Positions 22,596 through 29,410 of a stretch of DNA of 43,500 bases are shown here, piece after piece (the stretch's first letter is position 1; each line of letters opens with the position of its first letter). The notes under the pieces are model-generated. The model was not told the DNA's origin. It worked only from the letters and a program-made list of their open reading frames with translations, and did not search any database. The stretch comes from a virus (taxonomy: Duplodnaviria; Heunggongvirae; Uroviricota; Caudoviricetes), in IMG/VR virus record IMGVR_UViG_2728369187_000005; one strand, 5' to 3'. The position numbers and the translations under genes are program-made.

Positions 22596-24053
22596 TTAGG
22601 AGCGCCAAAAAAAACCTGAAAACAATATAATAACAGGATAAATTTCAAGGCGACCAAGAATCATAGCTATGCACATTAAACATTTTGCAATGTCATTAAG
22701 CACTCCGAATGACGATGCAGTAGCCCCAAAACCTAATCCCATATTATTAATACATGCAGCCACTGTTGCAAATGATGTAAGAAAATCATATCCCATACCA
22801 TTTAACACCAGTATAAAAAACACCGTGAAGAGAGTATAAAGAAAAAAGAAACTCCATACAGACCTCATTACACGATCTGTAACTATCTTCCCTCCTACAT
22901 TTACACTCAACAACGCTCTGGGATGAGAAAGCTGATTTATCTCGTGTTTGCTTTGTTTGAAAAGTATAAGAAATCGAAGTGACTTAATTCCACCACAAGT
23001 TGAACCTATACATCCCCCAAAGAAACTTGACAACAGCAAAAACACTATCGTGTGCGTGGGCCAACTTGCATAATCCTGCGTAGCTAAACCATTATCAGTG
23101 AGCATGGAGCTGGCAAGAAAAAACGAATGAATAAAACTTCCATGCAAGTCATACATACCTATATGCCAGACCTGGAAAGAGGTAACAATGATCACCCCTA
23201 AGGCTATTAACAGAAAGAAACGAAGTTCAATATCTCTGATTAAAGGTTTTATCGTTTTCCTGCTAATAACAATATACCAAAGAGTGAAGTTGAAAGCCGA
23301 TAGCAGGGAAAAAGAACCAGCCACCAGCTCAACCAAATAGTTATTAAAATATCCGATACTCTCGCTATGAGTTGAGAAACCACCAAGCGAAACTGTGGAA
23401 ATCCCGTGACAAATAGCATCAAACAAAGGCATTCCTGCAAGTCTATAACAGACAATACAAGCAATACCTAATAAAGAATAAGTTATCCACAGTGTCCGTG
23501 ACGTATCGGCCAGGCGGGGAGTGAGTTTGTCATCCTTAAATGGCCCCGGCATTTCTGACTGATAAAGCTTTGCACCACCAATACCCAATAATGGCAATAC
23601 AGCAACCGCCAGAACAATAACTCCTAAACCACCTATAAAATTTAACTGTGACCGATAGTACAAATATGCCCGAGGTAATGAACTAACATCATCAATTACA
23701 GTTGCTCCTGTTGTTGTTATTCCAGAAACCCCTTCAAACAGAGCATCAATGAACGTTAAATTAAGTTCTGAGTCAATCCATAAAGGGAATGCACTAATAA
23801 CAGAAAACAAAATCCAAAACATTACAATTATAATAAACCCATCACGGGTACGTAATTGAATGCCAGATTTCTTAGTTGTATACCACGCTCCGCCACCAAT
23901 GCAAAAAAATATAACGAAAGTTATAAAGAAAACGAACAGGCTTTTTTCTTTATAAAACAATGCTACAACCATTGGTGGCAACATTGAAAGACTATAGAGC
24001 CAAACCAGGAACCCACACATATGAGTAACAACTCTTACATGAGATGTATTCAT
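22596..24053 (-). CDS. trkG: Trk-family K+ uptake transporter
   Basis: Polytopic membrane ORF with N-terminus MNTSHVRVVTHMCGFLVWLYSLSML as recalled for K-12 TrkG; AT-rich codon usage typical of a moron. Confidence 0.9.
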   Translation of the reverse strand: MNTSHVRVVTHMCGFLVWLYSLSMLPPMVVALFYKEKSLFVFFITFVIFFCIGGGAWYTTKKSGIQLRTRDGFIIIVMFWILFSVISAFPLWIDSELNLTFIDALFEGVSGITTTGATVIDDVSSLPRAYLYYRSQLNFIGGLGVIVLAVAVLPLLGIGGAKLYQSEMPGPFKDDKLTPRLADTSRTLWITYSLLGIACIVCYRLAGMPLFDAICHGISTVSLGGFSTHSESIGYFNNYLVELVAGSFSLLSAFNFTLWYIVISRKTIKPLIRDIELRFFLLIALGVIIVTSFQVWHIGMYDLHGSFIHSFFLASSMLTDNGLATQDYASWPTHTIVFLLLSSFFGGCIGSTCGGIKSLRFLILFKQSKHEINQLSHPRALLSVNVGGKIVTDRVMRSVWSFFFLYTLFTVFFILVLNGMGYDFLTSFATVAACINNMGLGFGATASSFGVLNDIAKCLMCIAMILGRLEIYPVIILFSGFFWRS

Positions 24054-24190
24054 ATCTAAATATTCTTTCAATTATAACCACCTTGCTGCAATATTATGAT
24101 TATACTGTATAAAATTTAACTCCTCTTAGATCTTACTTCACTGTTCCTTATGAAACAATCATCAAAATGAATCATATTGTAGTTAAGATT

Positions 24191-24655
24191 TTACTTTAAA
24201 CACTGCTCGGTTATGTATTGCTGAGCACCTTCAAGTTGGGCCTGCATCATTACCAGTCGTTCCCGGAGGGTGAAATAATCCCGTTCAGCGGTGTCTGCCA
24301 GTCGGGGGGAGGCTGCATTATCCACGCCGGAGGCGGTGGTGGCTTCACGCACTGACTGACAGACTGCTTTGATGTGCAACCGACGACGACCAGCGGCAAC
24401 ATCATCACGCAGAGCATCATTTTCAGCTTTCGCATCAGCTAACTCCTTCGTGTATTTTGCATCGAGCGCAGCAACATCACGCTGACGCATCTGCATGTCA
24501 GTAATTGCCGCGTTCGCCAGCTTCAGTTCTCTGGCATTTTTGTCGCGCTGTTCTTTGTAGGCGATGGCGTTATCACGGTAATGATTAACACCCCATGACA
24601 GGCAGACGACGATGCAGATAACCAGAGCGGAGATAATCGCGGTTACTCTGCTCAT
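24191..24655 (-). CDS. i-spanin Rz
   Basis: 154-aa ORF with N-terminal TM segment and coiled-coil periplasmic domain; overlaps the endolysin stop. Confidence 0.8.
24250..24435 (-). CDS. o-spanin Rz1 (embedded in Rz, +1 frame)
   Basis: 61-aa ORF with lipobox LVVVGC and proline-rich mature part, fully inside Rz. Confidence 0.7.
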
Positions 24656-25128
24656 ACCTCAATCTCTCTGACCGTTCCGCCAGCTTCTTTGAATTTTGCA
24701 ATCAGACTGTCAGCCTTATGCTCGAACTGACCATAACCAGCGCCCGGCAGTGAAGCCCATATATTGCTGCAACGGTCGATAGCCTGACGGATATCACCGC
24801 GATCAATCATCGGCAAAGCGCCACGCTCTTTAATCTGCTGCAGCGCTACAGCATCCTGACTTTCTGGAGAAAAATCTTTCAGGCCAAGTTGCTTGCGGTA
24901 GGCATCCCACCAGCGTGAAAGAAGCTGGTAACGTCCAGCGGCTGTTGATTTGAGTTTCGGATTTAGCGTGACAAGTTTGCGGGGGTGATCGGAGTAATCA
25001 GTGAACAGTTCGCCACCGACAATAACATCATAACCGTGATTTCTGGTTTTCTGCCGTCCGTTATCTGTTCCTTCTGACCATGCCACCATATCAAGGAAAG
25101 CTTTACGCTGGGAATTAAGTGTCTGCAT
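24652..25128 (-). CDS. R: endolysin, lambda R-type lytic transglycosylase
   Basis: 158-aa ORF; ...[46 protein letters not shown]... near-identical to lambda R as recalled. Confidence 0.9.
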
Positions 25129-25131
25129 TAA

Positions 25132-25482
25132 TTACTCCTTATGGGCACCGAACTTGTTACCGATGACCCTCATTGCCGCACCACGAATAGCATCAACACC
25201 AATCAGCCCCACCCCACCACCAATGGCAACAGAAAGTGATTTAGGCCATCCGACATACTCAAGCGCGGATGCAAAGGTCAGCGTCAGAGCACCACAAAGC
25301 AGAATCTCAAGCGTTTTTCGTTTCCAGCCGCCGCCACCGCCAAAATAGGCAATGCGCAAACCAGCCATAATAATTGACATAACCACTGCACCCAGCGGCG
25401 TATCTCCACGCCACCAACTTTGTAAGAGTTCCAGTAAGTCAGGCCAGGAATGAGGGGCATTGTGCATTTTCATAAGCCTCAC
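25132..25482 (-). CDS. holin
   Basis: 116-aa ORF with hydrophobic segments and M-x-x-M-K-M dual-start-like N-terminus, immediately upstream of the endolysin. Confidence 0.65.
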   Translation of the reverse strand: MRLMKMHNAPHSWPDLLELLQSWWRGDTPLGAVVMSIIMAGLRIAYFGGGGGWKRKTLEILLCGALTLTFASALEYVGWPKSLSVAIGGGVGLIGVDAIRGAAMRVIGNKFGAHKE

Positions 25483-25569
25483 CTCCGAGAGTTCGGATGG
25501 TGCTAAGTGTAAGATTCAGGCTCTCAGGCTTGCTAACAAGAAGTCGAGGATGTTTCCAGAGCCTAACAA

Positions 25570-25596
25570 CGAAAAAGCCCCGGGACATGCCGGGGC
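25570..25596 (-). terminator. intrinsic terminator upstream of the holin
   Basis: Minus-strand GCCCCGG-catgtc-CCGGGGC followed by TTTTTCGTTGTT. Confidence 0.5.
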
Positions 25597-25690
25597 CAGA
25601 TGGAGTGCCAGATTAAGCTTCTGGCGGTATATACTCGTGTTTGATATCGTTAAATCGCCAAAAGTAACAATTCAAACAAAGAGGATTTTT

Positions 25691-25852
25691 ATGTCTGAAA
25701 AAAACAAACCACAAGGTGAAAATAAACCTCAGCAACCCGTGGCACCAAAACCAACTCCAACACAAAGTACTACAGACTTTGCTACACGTCGTGTTTTTGT
25801 TGGAGATTCTGCCGACTCAGTCATTGAACATATAAAAAAACAGCCGAGATAA
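25691..25852 (+). CDS. small Pro/Lys-rich hypothetical protein (53 aa), convergent with the membrane-protein moron
   Basis: ATG 7 nt after AAGAGGA; MSEKNKPQGENKPQQPVAPKPTPTQSTTDFATRRVFVGDSADSVIEHIKKQPR; 3' end overlaps the 189-aa gene. Confidence 0.35.
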   Translation: MSEKNKPQGENKPQQPVAPKPTPTQSTTDFATRRVFVGDSADSVIEHIKKQPR

Positions 25853-26390
25853 ACATCGCCGCTACCGGAGCAAGGATGGTATACATCCTTGCTTTATCGA
25901 GACTCGTGCGGATTTTCTCATTTTCCAACAGTAACTCTCTTGCTGTATCACTCAAGTCAACAAGGCGATACCTTCGTATAAGCGGCAATAACTTATCAGG
26001 TCCTAAATATCCTGCATCAGCGAATATTTTAAAGCTCGAGGGCTCCATATCCTTATATTTTTCATGATATATATGATCAGGAGGGGCATTGATCAGGCCC
26101 CTAACCTTCACAGATAAACCAGTACATACCAAGTAAATGGCGCACCATGTCCATAGTAATGTAAATGTGGTAATTCCGGCGGTGAGAAAATCGAAATTAG
26201 TTTTCTGTGTCAGCAATAAAAAAGATGAACCAATTCCAACAATCTGAATGTTCAGAAGTTTGTATCCATTCTCAACATTGGTTTTGTTAGAAAGATGAAT
26301 CTCTCGTATCGTCTCTTCCCCTTGTTTTTCAAGATAATCGACGAGCTCATCATCTACTCCTAAAAAATAATCTTTAGGTAGTTCTCTCAT
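25821..26390 (-). CDS. hypothetical polytopic membrane protein (moron between Q and holin)
   Basis: 189-aa ORF, AT-rich; GGAGG upstream of ATG; about three hydrophobic segments (IQIVGIGSSFLLL, FLTAGITTFTLLWTWCAIYLVCTGL, MYTILAPVAAMFISAVFLYV). Confidence 0.6.
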   Translation of the reverse strand: MRELPKDYFLGVDDELVDYLEKQGEETIREIHLSNKTNVENGYKLLNIQIVGIGSSFLLLTQKTNFDFLTAGITTFTLLWTWCAIYLVCTGLSVKVRGLINAPPDHIYHEKYKDMEPSSFKIFADAGYLGPDKLLPLIRRYRLVDLSDTARELLLENEKIRTSLDKARMYTILAPVAAMFISAVFLYVQ

Positions 26391-26495
26391 CTCACCTCCA
26401 CATCCTGTACTGAAAACAATTTTACCAGAATGTCTCGATTCTAGGTATTCAGCCAGGAATCGCGCTCCAGAAATGAAACATCAGGTTCACCAGTA

Positions 26496-26528
26496 CCAGA
26501 AACAACAAAACCCGCTCAATGGCGGGTT
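26496..26528 (-). terminator. intrinsic terminator downstream of the Q-like gene (tR'-like)
   Basis: Minus-strand AACCCGC-cattga-GCGGGTT followed by TTTTGTTGTTTCT, about 85 nt after the Q-like stop. Confidence 0.45.
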
Positions 26529-26611
26529 CTGGTAAAGTTCATGCGCTTGGTTCGCCTCGCGATACAGCTTTGCGAAGCATACCGGAATTGAAGCAGTTTA
26601 TGCGTAAAAAA

Positions 26612-27154
26612 TCAAGCTATTTTTTGAGCAAATGATTCTCGCATGGGAATATATAGGGCATACTCAGCAACAGCCAACCAATTAGCAATTCGCTTTTCGC
26701 ATGTGCTAAAACACCACTCAGGATGTGCATCATTTAGCAATTCAGCCATTTTGCGCTTAGTCATCCCCCGTCCTTCATACCGTTGCCGGAGGACACTAAT
26801 CAATCCAGGATGCTCTGCCAGCACCTCACTTATGACTCGATCAATACATAACGCCTCTGCATCAGTACAATGCGCCAGCCAGCTCTTTTGCTTGCCGTTG
26901 ATCATCTCTCGCAAAAACGCTTCCAGCTCAGCTTTCTCTATTCCCGCTTTTTTCATTCTGCGCAGGGCTTCATTGATGGCTGTTTTCGTCAATTTTTTGG
27001 ATGCCAACAACTGATTGAACATATTTCCTGACCTGCCACCGCCAATATACGACCAGCGCCCCCACATACGCAGTTTGCCCTGAATCCAGACACTTTCCAG
27101 CGTGGCGAGACGAAGGTGTTCTCCGCTTTTTCCTGTATTCGTTGGGTAAATCAC
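26612..27154 (-). CDS. putative late-gene antiterminator Q
   Basis: ORF 26612-27274; GTG start at 27154 chosen (AAGGAGGG upstream, GTGA overlap with the upstream stop); last gene before the terminator and lysis region. Confidence 0.5.
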   Translation of the reverse strand: MIYPTNTGKSGEHLRLATLESVWIQGKLRMWGRWSYIGGGRSGNMFNQLLASKKLTKTAINEALRRMKKAGIEKAELEAFLREMINGKQKSWLAHCTDAEALCIDRVISEVLAEHPGLISVLRQRYEGRGMTKRKMAELLNDAHPEWCFSTCEKRIANWLAVAEYALYIPMRESFAQKIA

Positions 27155-27441
27155 AAATATCCCTCCTTTCTCCAGATTTCTTGTGTGCGAAAAACACCTT
27201 CTGCATGCATCAGGCGTAATTCTTCTTTGGTGTAATCGCTGGTTTTTACCCGCCCGTCGATTAGATCGTGGCATGAGCTACAGGCAATCGCCGCCTGCAT
27301 ATCGTGTGGTTTTGTCGCTGTTCCGCACGTTCCCGCCAGTCGGTAATGCGCCAGCACAGACGTTTCCGGATCGTGATTGCAGTAGCCAGGAATTCTGACG
27401 GTGCACATCTGCCCCCGCGCCGCTTTACGTAAATCCACCAT
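27151..27441 (-). CDS. DUF1364-type Cys-rich protein (YbcO-like)
   Basis: 96-aa ORF with Cys motifs (CTVRIPGYC ... AIACSSCHD) resembling DLP12 YbcO as recalled. Confidence 0.7.
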   Translation of the reverse strand: MVDLRKAARGQMCTVRIPGYCNHDPETSVLAHYRLAGTCGTATKPHDMQAAIACSSCHDLIDGRVKTSDYTKEELRLMHAEGVFRTQEIWRKEGYL

Positions 27442-28040
27442 TACGCAAACTCCAGCAGCTGCGCGGTCACATTTTCGACTTGTTCCGGAGAGGAAAATTT
27501 ACGGAACAGAATCCAGTTCCACAGCACATTCAGAACAGATTTATAAACCTGCTGAAACTCGGTTTCGTCCATATTCGCAAAAGCGATGGATTTCGCCCGA
27601 CGCCCATGGCTACCATCAGGATAAAGATGCTCGGTGTAAAATCCGGCCTGAATGGTTACCCACTCGCGGAAAGCCTCAAACGACTTTAGCAATGCCGTAT
27701 CCCGGGTTCTGCGTGTCGCAACTGTATTCAGATATTGCTCTGCGGCTTCGCTCAGAGCTGGCGTATGTTCCCGGCCTACTGATTCACATAGGTAATCAAC
27801 GAATCCTGAAACCAGCTTTCGTTCGCGAGGCGTGATCGCCCCACCGACCGGAGTCCAGTAATCGAATCCCAGTTGCAGGAGTTTGAAAAAACGCTTGTGG
27901 AATGCGTAGTTACGCACACGCTTAAAGTCTGCGTGTATCCACTCGCCTATTTTGATTTGATGCAAAAAATCGCAACTCTCCGGCGTCGCCGGGAGAAGTA
28001 GTCCAGAAGAGGTTTGTTTGACCAGTTGTATATGCGCCAT
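27441..28040 (-). CDS. conserved nin-region phage protein (possibly DUF1367-like)
   Basis: 199-aa ORF, first gene of the minus-strand cluster ending in the Q-like gene; ATG overlaps the downstream start region. Confidence 0.6.
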   Translation of the reverse strand: MAHIQLVKQTSSGLLLPATPESCDFLHQIKIGEWIHADFKRVRNYAFHKRFFKLLQLGFDYWTPVGGAITPRERKLVSGFVDYLCESVGREHTPALSEAAEQYLNTVATRRTRDTALLKSFEAFREWVTIQAGFYTEHLYPDGSHGRRAKSIAFANMDETEFQQVYKSVLNVLWNWILFRKFSSPEQVENVTAQLLEFA

Positions 28041-28224
28041 TTCTCAATCTCTCGATGGCGCAGTGCAGCAGATGCCAGTTGTTCAGGCTGACGAATAAAG
28101 TATAAATAAACTGGCTATGGTGTAAAGCTCCACATAACATGAACAAACACTACATATCAAATAGCTGATACAAGGATAGAAATACAACACTTATTATTAA
28201 AAACGATTAGATAAATTACATTTT

Positions 28225-28259
28225 AATGTTATGAAAAAGTTCTTTTTTATCATAACATT
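28225..28259. promoter_or_regulatory. palindrome AATGTTATGA-N15-TCATAACATT (candidate operator) in divergent intergenic region
   Basis: Perfect 10-bp inverted repeat, extendable with one bulge to about 15 bp. Confidence 0.35.
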
Positions 28260-28318
28260 TCAACAAAAGCATTACAGATGCACATCCCGTCATCATCAAT
28301 TATTTAAGGTGGTTAAAC

Positions 28319-28405
28319 ATGGAAAATAACAACTATGCACATCTCGCTCCTTTTTTATCCGTAATCCTTTTCGCTGGCTGTTTTATATGGGCATTATTTT
28401 TATAA
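28319..28405 (+). CDS. small hydrophobic peptide (28 aa)
   Basis: ATG 6 nt after AAGGTGG; MENNNYAHLAPFLSVILFAGCFIWALFL; single predicted TM helix. Confidence 0.35.
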   Translation: MENNNYAHLAPFLSVILFAGCFIWALFL

Positions 28406-28478
28406 AGTAGCCGCATGATTAGTTTCTGGAATCATGTTTCCCACTCAAATCATTAACATTTGATAAGATATATCTAAA

Positions 28479-28540
28479 AGGATGCCTTTACATTATTTGA
28501 TGCGTATATGATTTATTTATATGCACAGTAAAGGCATCCT
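28479..28540. other. long hairpin, perfect 13-bp stem with about 36-nt loop
   Basis: AGGATGCCTTTAC ... GTAAAGGCATCCT; minus-strand version is followed by TTTTAGATAT. Confidence 0.4.
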
Positions 28541-28907
28541 GGAAATAATCAAGATTAATGATATATTGCTTATCTCATCCCCCACTGTCTTTCACCCGGA
28601 AAACATTTATCGTTAAAAATATATCATAAGTAATTAAATTGAAATTTCAGAACACAACTAATGCACACAATAAGATTCAGTAACAGTAATCTATGCGGAC
28701 TATATCGAGATTTTTTAGTTAAACTTTAATAAGTTATTCCTAACACACAGAATGCACAAACTAAAAGTAAAACAAATAGTTATACGAAAAACAACCATAT
28801 TGATTCTATCTTCTCCTCTAATCAACATATCAATTATGTGTTTCATAACAGCTTGACATAACCCTCAAAAAGGTGCATTTATAATGCATGTTTTATGGGA
28901 GGTGGTT

Positions 28908-29249
28908 ATGACACACAAGAGAATTCCTAAAGACTGGGTAATCAAACGCTCAACTCCGTTCTTCACAAAAGAGAACGTACCTTCAGCGTTATTAACACAT
29001 CATAATACAGCAGCAGGTGTTTTTGGACAGTTATGCGTGATGGAAGGTACTGTAACATATTATGGTTTTGCTGATGAGAATGCTACTGAACCGGAGATAA
29101 AAGTAGTCATTAATGCTGGCGCTTTTGCAACAAGCCCACCACAATACTGGCACCGTGTTGAACTAAGCGATGATGCTCAGTTTAATATTAACTTTTGGGT
29201 AGCTCCAGACTTCTCAGGCGAAAAAGTCTATACCGCAAAAAAAGAATAG
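28908..29249 (+). CDS. YeaR-like (DUF1971) cupin-type protein
   Basis: ORF 28884-29249; ATG at 28908 after GGGAGGTGG; motifs RSTPFFTKENVP ... FNINFWVAPDF resemble E. coli YeaR as recalled. Confidence 0.55.
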   Translation: MTHKRIPKDWVIKRSTPFFTKENVPSALLTHHNTAAGVFGQLCVMEGTVTYYGFADENATEPEIKVVINAGAFATSPPQYWHRVELSDDAQFNINFWVAPDFSGEKVYTAKKE

Positions 29250-29410
29250 CCACGCTATAAATATCTTATTAACTAGTCCCGGCGTGGTTCTTTCCCCGCT
29301 GGGTCTTTTACTCAGATTAGTAGTCTACGAATCAGAGCCTCCGTCTGCCAGTTCGGATTCGTACCTCGCAGAGGTCTTTCCTCGTTACCAGTGCCGTCAC
29401 TATGACGGTT

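Follow-up and report, generated by a model that had tools for sequence, protein, structure and literature searches.

What is a membrane protein gene doing between the late antiterminator and the holin of a prophage, and why does a second, very small gene run into its end from the opposite strand? The question is raised by a stretch of 43,500 nucleotides (the window; IMG/VR record IMGVR_UViG_2728369187_000005), a Rac-like lambdoid prophage of Escherichia coli whose antiterminator and lysis genes lie on the minus strand. Between its Q-like antiterminator gene and its holin gene stand a gene for a protein of 189 amino acids (the large gene) and, convergent with it, a gene for a protein of 53 amino acids (the small gene), here together called the cassette. 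Both open reading frames (ORFs) are real genes, and together they form a self-contained moron that moves horizontally and lies between a putative late-promoter/terminator module and the holin. As to function, we tentatively favor, at somewhat below an even chance, a reading from sequence in which the large protein would act on the membrane as a potentially harmful effector, and the convergent small gene would restrain it through antisense RNA, protein, or both.

The large gene (positions 25821-26390, minus strand; family phrog_11870, RefSeq accession WP_001208721.1) starts four bases beyond a GGAGG ribosome-binding site at 26399-26395. A preliminary description of this DNA, made from the letters alone, had noted here an AT-rich ORF of 189 codons with this site and about three hydrophobic helices. 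Topology prediction confirmed the helices, at residues of about 44-62, 68-92, and 170-188, and the AlphaFold model (predicted local distance difference test score of 83) consists of three very long helices spanning residues 14-62, 68-92, and 134-188. The loop between transmembrane helices TM2 and TM3 holds 14 Lys/Arg residues, versus one in the loop between TM1 and TM2, which places the acidic N-terminal helix and the basic 77-residue loop in the cytoplasm. The large protein is thus predicted to be an inner-membrane protein of N-in/C-out topology, with nearly all of its extramembrane mass cytoplasmic and a periplasmic exposure of only an approximately 5-residue loop and one or two C-terminal residues. 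Small and polar residues abound in its transmembrane helices, as in the GIGSSF motif with the invariant G52, I53, and F57, and its conserved polar residues are nearly all cytoplasmic or intramembrane.

More than 100 homologs of the large protein were found, almost all of exactly 189 residues, reaching down to 42% identity and sharing 24 invariant columns. They come from Escherichia, Citrobacter, Klebsiella, Serratia, Yersinia, Pantoea, Proteus, Morganella, Providencia, Salmonella, and other genera. A profile search of 1.8 billion representative proteins extended this close family to 102 members of a wider one, 160-200 residues long and with the same three-helix layout; all 69 that were sampled match phrog_11870, a family of unknown function. 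In PHROGs, both cassette proteins match families of unknown function only, and a profile search against PDB sequences gave chance-level matches only (best, GpsB at E = 0.085). The remote homology search proposed in the preliminary description matched the large protein to phrog_11870 alone: no holin model in Pfam, PHROGs, or NCBIfam was matched, and at 189 residues the protein exceeds the roughly 70-130 of holin-type proteins. The genome of E. coli GN06156 carries an identical stretch, in which both ORFs are annotated as hypothetical proteins (WP_001208721.1 and WP_152948782.1).

The small gene (25691-25852, plus strand; phrog_14506) encodes a Pro/Lys/Gln-rich protein, and the final 32 nucleotides of its ORF overlap the 3' end of the large gene. 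This agrees with the preliminary description, which had reported a Pro/Lys-rich ORF of 53 codons with an AAGAGGA site (25679-25685) and a 3' overlap, and had guessed that the two ORFs might be partners; they are a genuine conserved pair, the small gene standing beside the large gene in 13 of the 14 intact close-family loci. RefSeq, through the Prokaryotic Genome Annotation Pipeline, starts the gene at a GTG at 25637, giving 71 residues (WP_152948782.1); the start conserved across genera, together with its ribosome-binding site, is the ATG at 25691. Homologous small proteins have 47-55 residues, beginning MSxxNKP...KPQP, continuing with a Pro/Lys/Gln-rich middle, and ending in a C-terminal DF..R..VGDSA[DE] motif. 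The convergent arrangement, with an overlap of 20-32 nucleotides, recurs in Citrobacter, Serratia (four loci), Pantoea, Trabulsiella (two loci), Yersinia, Morganella, and phage pPE4, and in a second E. coli allele (58% identity) the overlap reaches 73 nucleotides and the large gene is extended at its C terminus.

Several features indicate that the small gene is under purifying selection as a protein and not as an RNA only. The ratio of nonsynonymous to synonymous substitution rates (dN/dS) is 0.08-0.5 over the 43 codons outside the overlap, differences fall at codon positions in the numbers 388/332/644 and thus in excess at third positions, and the reading frame, the ATG, and the ribosome-binding site survive indels in ten divergent lineages. 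The arrangement also reaches beyond the close family. A relative at 42% identity (L028, 2987-3662) has a convergent small ORF sharing MTQEKKQP... and MDSAD motifs, and a relative at 21% identity on a Mu-like phage contig (L031, 1968-2637) has one that shares position and composition and is without the C-terminal motif. Both of these small ORFs have 44-48 codons, a 23-nucleotide overlap with the 3' end of the large gene, and a strong hairpin just past the stop codon; on L031 the flanking genes are DUF1804 on one side and portal/terminase genes on the other, away from lysis genes. As a side observation, several E. coli genomes (e.g., EC20) have a 1-nucleotide deletion at 25841, in the overlap of the two genes, that alters both C termini, and RefSeq then annotates the large gene only.

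In the window, a corresponding hairpin begins 16 nucleotides past the stop codon of the small ORF. It is formed by GCAAGGATG-GTATA-CATCCTTGC (25868-25894, plus strand), has 9-12 base pairs, and lies inside the coding sequence of the large gene, within codons 166-174 in TM3. Across 12 loci, 96.2% of the alignment cells are paired, and 5 of the 11 pairs show changes on both sides; the covariation score was reached by none of 500 shuffles, and controls slid along the sequence were paired to at most 53%. The pairing is better on the small-gene strand (127/132 versus 112/132 on the other strand) because of G-U wobbles, and the hairpin is more stable on that strand in all 12 loci. At the codon level, all 13 loci specify Arg168 with a rare codon, AGG or AGA, and the hairpin is kept because this codon pairs with that of Leu173. 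The 42%-identity relative and the Mu-like phage relative (21%) also have a hairpin at this position, and the complementarity is lost in a Salmonella variant that has no small gene. The embedded hairpin is a candidate 3' end or stabilizer of the small-gene transcript. If the signals are used as read, this transcript would measure about 240 nucleotides (about 25657-25894) and, given their positions, its whole length would be complementary to the last ~70 coding nucleotides of the large mRNA and to the 3' untranslated region toward the holin-proximal terminator described below.

The start of this putative transcript is marked by P_S, the promoter and leader read for the small gene (25639-25685, plus strand), with an extended -10 element TGaTATCGT at 25642-25650. 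A block of about 30 nucleotides (TCTGATATYGTTAAATCGCCAGAAATAAC; 25639-25668) is conserved across genera far above the surrounding saturated synonymous sites; within it, an inner inverted repeat GTTA..TAAC shows compensatory changes, and no close-family locus with the small gene lacks the pattern TGnTATnnT. On the other strand, the promoter candidate for the large gene, P_L, is a conserved -10-like motif (TGgTAAAAT, 26419-26427, minus strand) without a -35 element. The corresponding motif GGTAAAAT (GGTAA[AG]AT) lies 36-42 nucleotides before the start of the large gene in 10 of the 14 close-family loci, in spacers that have otherwise diverged.

The cassette ends, on the minus strand, in a terminator just before the holin (t2; 25566-25597). 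Its hairpin (25597-25576) has 8 pairs, 7 of them G-C, a tail TTTTTCGTTG, and a folding z-score of -1.9, and an equivalent hairpin and T-run with compensatory changes are found in all eight aligned loci. Between t2 and P_S lies a further inverted repeat, GCCAGA-N6-TCTGGC (25608-25625), which is kept in Serratia, Yersinia, and Morganella, and at whose position Trabulsiella has a different palindrome, GCCGC..GCGGC. A search of positions 25300-26800 against Rfam gave no match.

The preliminary description had seen the large gene as bracketed by two terminators, one after the Q-like gene and one before the holin. Both hairpins with T-tracts are present (26531-26506 and 25597-25576). Terminator-like sites as such are not above chance in this 3.3-kb stretch (four, versus a shuffle expectation of 2.9 ± 1.8), and the terminators are supported because their positions are conserved in divergent loci, not because of the scan count. 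The bracketing holds for t2, which belongs to the cassette, and does not hold for the post-Q hairpin, which belongs to a separate block of 114 nucleotides (26496-26609). This block is common to 1445 of 5426 complete E. coli genomes at 90-99% identity, whatever the cargo downstream. Because the post-Q hairpin travels with a block that cassette-free prophages keep, the cassette does not have two terminators of its own; it is placed downstream of a terminator that Q would override, and only the holin-proximal terminator is cassette-owned.

The 114-nucleotide block is most simply read, by analogy with lambda PR', as a lambdoid late-promoter/tR'-type module. The candidate late promoter (PR'-like; 26576-26615, minus strand), which lies outside the cassette, was assigned from a reading of the sequence as a -35 element TTGATT at 26615-26610, a 17-nucleotide spacer, and a -10 element TTCAAT at 26592-26587; a generic promoter scan did not flag it. 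The -35 element overlaps the stop codon TGA of the Q-like gene (26614-26612), and a -10-like TATGCT (26581-26576) stands in the place of a sigma-dependent pause element. About 50-75 nucleotides beyond TATGCT follows the tR'-like intrinsic terminator (26496-26531, minus strand; hairpin 26531-26506, 10 pairs, tail TTGTTGTTTC, folding z-score of -2.7). The order of a promoter-like element directly after Q, a -10-like repeat, and an intrinsic terminator resembles the lambda late control region (PR', qut, tR'). Unlike in lambda, Q is represented here by a DUF1133-type protein, a type on which we found no experimental data in the literature, and in E. coli RM8082 and phage pPE4 an ORF6N gene stands between Q and the block. 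The spacing of the late promoter is the same in these two despite a differing -35 region.

The distribution of the cassette bears out the proposal of the preliminary description that a moron occupies the Q-to-holin slot. The cassette is present in 231 of the 5426 complete E. coli genomes (about 4%), 220 of them at 99% identity or more, compared with the 1445 that have the adjacent 114-nucleotide block. Its GC content of 0.38-0.43 deviates from the 0.48-0.53 of the flanks. A variable insertion slot, a terminator of its own, and a deviating base composition come together in one element. Each of the 16 close-family prophage contexts examined has the cassette upstream of the holin, oriented with the late operon. 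Wherever an upstream late antiterminator was recognized, it belongs to one of three families (DUF1133, PF03589, or PF06530), and the holin downstream belongs to PF05106 or to PF04971/PF16080 or is replaced by a gene without a family match. Between the same flanks, RM8082 carries unrelated cargo, namely the ORF6N gene and another convergent pair, whose products have 92 and 76 residues and no Pfam matches. In phage pPE4 the slot is filled by three elements in a row: an ORF6N gene, this cassette, and a gene resembling tellurite-resistance genes. The slot thus maps as a reusable recombination "socket," with the 114-nucleotide block on one side and the block of P_S and terminator on the other, which helps to explain the exchange of cargo between Q and the holin.

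Some further variants were seen at this slot. The holin, t2, the inverted repeat, and P_S form a block shared with RM8082 at about 92% identity (window 25100-25675; L002, 2618-3194; also L034), and the second, 58%-identity cassette allele keeps the promoter-to-holin part of this block almost unchanged. A recombination junction lies in the 5' untranslated region of the small gene. In E. coli AF40 (L039), IS200C sits between the tR'-like block and the promoter region of the large gene, with both cassette genes intact.

How, then, might the pair work? In the reading we prefer, that of a membrane effector restrained by its convergent neighbor, constitutive expression of the small gene in the lysogen would restrain the large gene. 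Its RNA could pair with the 3' end of the large mRNA and destabilize that mRNA, and/or the small, disordered, basic protein could bind the acidic cytoplasmic helix of the large protein. The large protein would be made from its own weak promoter where one is present, and t2 would keep transcription initiated in the cassette off the holin in the lysogen. Massive production would come with Q-dependent read-through from the late promoter: Q-modified polymerase would pass both terminators, yield abundant transcripts of the large gene, and meet P_S head-on, and this strong late-strand transcription would override P_S and release the effector. The likeliest uses of such an arrangement would be abortive infection or addiction, in which the cell is killed or arrested when a phage attacks or the prophage is induced, or a modulation of lysis. 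We infer a net logic that would be toxin-antidote-like. A more specific version appears very unlikely: the small mRNA would have a dual function, as a cis-antisense, type I-like antitoxin RNA and as a message for a protein antidote to a SLATT-like pore-forming toxin, and Q read-through would flip the switch from "off" to "kill," either upon the prophage's own induction or when a superinfecting phage supplies a compatible Q in trans.

A number of observations weigh against the picture of a restrained effector. Neither Pfam, NCBIfam, nor PADLOC (E ≤ 1), defense models included, has a match for the large protein, and the small protein drew no match in these three either; fold searches returned only generic long-helix bundles such as BAR domains, and Foldseek against viral models gave nothing at E ≤ 0.001. 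The P_L motif is absent from the Pantoea, Morganella, Yersinia, and Salmonella loci (4 of 14; Yersinia has a degenerate variant, GGTTGGAAAAT), and since in Pantoea and Morganella the upstream terminator abuts the start of the large gene, expression there is probably purely Q-dependent. A generic sigma-70 scan flagged neither P_L nor P_S. The T-run after the embedded hairpin is weak, so this hairpin may be a 3'-end stabilizer or processing site and not a strong terminator. In a Salmonella enterica variant (L036, 3501-4079), which represents a cluster of 88 sequences, the large gene is intact with 192 codons and there is no convergent small gene; a co-directional ORF follows the large gene instead. 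Unless its place is taken by some other gene in this variant, the small gene is therefore not an antidote that the large gene always requires. The decay pattern, in which we sought the asymmetry of a broken toxin beside a kept antitoxin, is mixed: in Leclercia the large gene is frameshifted and the small gene intact, and two truncated large genes have no detectable small ORF downstream.

Part of this evidence would fit a large protein that serves as a late lysis accessory, made by Q read-through as a non-essential modulator of lysis timing, for instance a membrane-depolarizing or membrane-stabilizing factor that shifts holin triggering, with the small gene silencing leaky expression in the lysogen. 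The position upstream of the holin and the late-operon orientation, constant in the 16 contexts, the membrane-embedded nature of the protein, and the Pantoea and Morganella loci, where the P_L motif is missing and a terminator abuts the start codon, all speak for such a role. We nevertheless consider it unlikely. The cassette pairs with at least two unrelated holin families and with one gene without a family match, which makes specific antiholin binding improbable; it is missing from most prophages that have the same late-promoter module; its distant relatives occur in Mu-like or other phages far from lysis genes; and the protein matches no holin or antiholin model and has a promoter-like motif of its own in 10 of 14 loci. 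The moron anatomy, with promoter-like motif and terminator, would suit an inner-membrane protein that excludes superinfecting phages from the lysogen by blocking entry of their DNA, as T4 Imm, P22 SieA, and HK97 gp15 do at the inner membrane, the small gene then being an unrelated regulator or a second moron. A distant relative adjoining a SieB gene points in this direction. Against it stand the minimal predicted periplasmic exposure of the large protein and the lack of any match to superinfection-exclusion families (SieA/SieB, Imm, Cor, HK97 gp15) in Pfam, PHROGs, NCBIfam, and PADLOC, and a tightly overlapping, co-conserved pair with a hairpin in the coding sequence speaks against two independent morons. 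Exclusion appears distinctly unlikely.

The pair could alternatively be lysogenic-conversion or fitness cargo outside any phage conflict, such as a membrane protein of the stress response or of envelope homeostasis, or else a small transporter or channel, which the small protein would regulate from the cytoplasm. The same slots also carry trkG, a tellurite-resistance-like gene, and DUF1971, no defense model is matched, and the variant without the small gene is viable. The family is nevertheless a PHROG, all but one of the 21 contexts examined are phage or mobile, and the antisense "silencer" layout would be unusual for beneficial cargo of a housekeeping type; we therefore regard this explanation as rather improbable. 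That the small ORF is not a functional protein, and that only its RNA or its transcription matters, seems more doubtful still. Such a view could draw on a transcript that would be fully antisense to the 3' part of the large mRNA, on the low complexity and poor conservation of the N-terminal two thirds of the peptide, and on the relative at 21% identity, whose small ORF shares composition and not the C-terminal motif. It is contradicted by the dN/dS values and the third-position excess, and by the retention of frame, ATG, ribosome-binding site, and VGDSA[DE] motif.

To return to the preferred reading of a restrained membrane effector, its wider family offers a hint only, a link of the large protein to PycTM and SLATT proteins. 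Among the 69 distant relatives, the PADLOC PycTM model PDLC02364 is matched by five (best E = 1.5e-8) and PDLC02363 by two; "2TM effector" models of the cyclic-oligonucleotide-based antiphage signaling system (CBASS) are matched by three (two PDLC00700, one PDLC00668; best E = 4e-5); NCBIfam SLATT_1 is weakly matched by two (0.046), and Pfam PycTM and YLATT are matched by one each. These matches are confined to distant relatives, are mostly weak, and occur nowhere in the close family, which adds to the points weighing against an effector. The best PycTM-matching member (1.5e-8) was not pinned down among three batches of ten, which yielded only P0184 (5.5e-4) and P0196 (2TM, 2e-3), and no Pfam-annotated PycTM protein came up when the distant cluster served as profile query. 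With respect to context, distant relatives in phage accessory regions adjoin SieB and HicAB. Twenty of the 21 contexts examined are phage or mobile elements, the exception being P0200, a chromosomal metagenome contig without phage genes. Neither the window nor any related prophage locus examined has a cyclase or CD-NTase gene next to the large gene; a Guanylate_cyc-TPR gene occurs two genes from one distant metagenomic relative. The large protein resembles the transmembrane effectors of Pycsar and CBASS in size (about 160-190 residues) and in its helical-hairpin membrane layout, and the cassette differs from these systems in having a small disordered protein as partner and no adjacent cyclase.

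Known prophage elements offer further comparisons. Classical lambdoid morons include HK97 gp15, lambda bor and lom, and stx in the Q-S interval. The cassette shares with them the nature of an extra block, variably present between genes that are adjacent in relatives, with a deviating base composition, its own terminator, and a promoter-like element; it differs in being a convergent pair with overlapping 3' ends and a hairpin in coding sequence, where the classical moron is a single unit of promoter, gene, and terminator. In the type I toxin-antitoxin systems of Bacillus subtilis prophages (bsrG/SR4, yonT/SR6, and txpA/RatA), convergent RNAs overlap at their 3' ends, and the antisense RNA drives decay of the toxin mRNA via RNase III (PMC3834814, PMC5848175, PMC3531473). 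The likeness lies in a prophage-borne membrane protein gene with a convergent transcript that is predicted here to overlap it at the 3' end. Here, however, the candidate toxin has 189 residues and three helices instead of being a peptide of under 60 residues, the putative antisense transcript codes for a conserved protein of 47-55 residues instead of being a non-coding antitoxin, and there is no sequence relationship. Type II systems are co-transcribed in one operon, whereas the cassette genes are convergent. A three-helix membrane toxin with a disordered protein antitoxin of 56 residues is known from Bacillus as SpoIISA/SpoIISB, which is encoded in a co-directional operon and in which SpoIISA has a distinct C-terminal cytoplasmic domain. 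The cassette shares the combination of a three-helix membrane protein with a cytoplasmic part and a very small disordered protein; no search of the cassette proteins turned up any sequence similarity to this system. Separately, Tai/Ati (phi80 orf63/64), a prophage defense/counter-defense pair under Q control, was considered and rejected as a counterpart, its location being different and no membrane protein being reported for it.

The cassette is therefore of a known kind, a moron with what we infer to be toxin-antidote-like logic, and what is undescribed is the large-protein family, the coding antisense partner that goes with it, and the hairpin written into its codons. An antisense transcript that encodes a protein and would end in a hairpin within the codons of a membrane protein suggests a design not described for the cargo of Gram-negative prophages. 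The pair occurs in prophages of many enterobacterial genera, its function is unannotated, and we found no paper on it and no description of either protein in the literature. Should the large protein be membrane-active, it would be a compact, cyclase-independent relative of transmembrane defense effectors and would provide a tractable model for how prophages silence dangerous cargo in their late operons. Were the improbable dual-function version true, the cassette would represent a novel type of switch carried by phages across Enterobacterales, working by toxin and antidote or by abortive infection, with diverged forms in other phage types.

The genes around the cassette are those of a lambdoid late region. 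Upstream, on the minus strand, lie a NinB-like gene (27441-28040), a YbcO gene (27151-27441), and the Q-like antiterminator gene of the DUF1133 family (26612-27274). Downstream follows the holin gene (25132-25482, minus strand), of the lambda family with strong matches to PF05106 and TIGR01594, and beyond it, further along the same strand, lysozyme, Rz with an embedded Rz1, and trkG. The ORF of the Rz1 o-spanin lipoprotein inside Rz (24250-24435, minus strand; 61 residues; PF06085, E = 2e-19) is unannotated in the identical RefSeq genome. An AT-rich stretch with a GC content of about 0.33 lies at 23800-24250, and trkG, for potassium uptake (22596-24071, minus strand), forms cargo between Rz and the ParB-like/terminase genes. 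At the opposite end, a stretch of the nin region within 28000-29250 is AT-rich as well (GC content of 0.30-0.34), followed by a DUF1971 gene (28884-29249, plus strand; PF09313, E = 3.5e-26), just past which the identical genome has a Hok/Gef gene.

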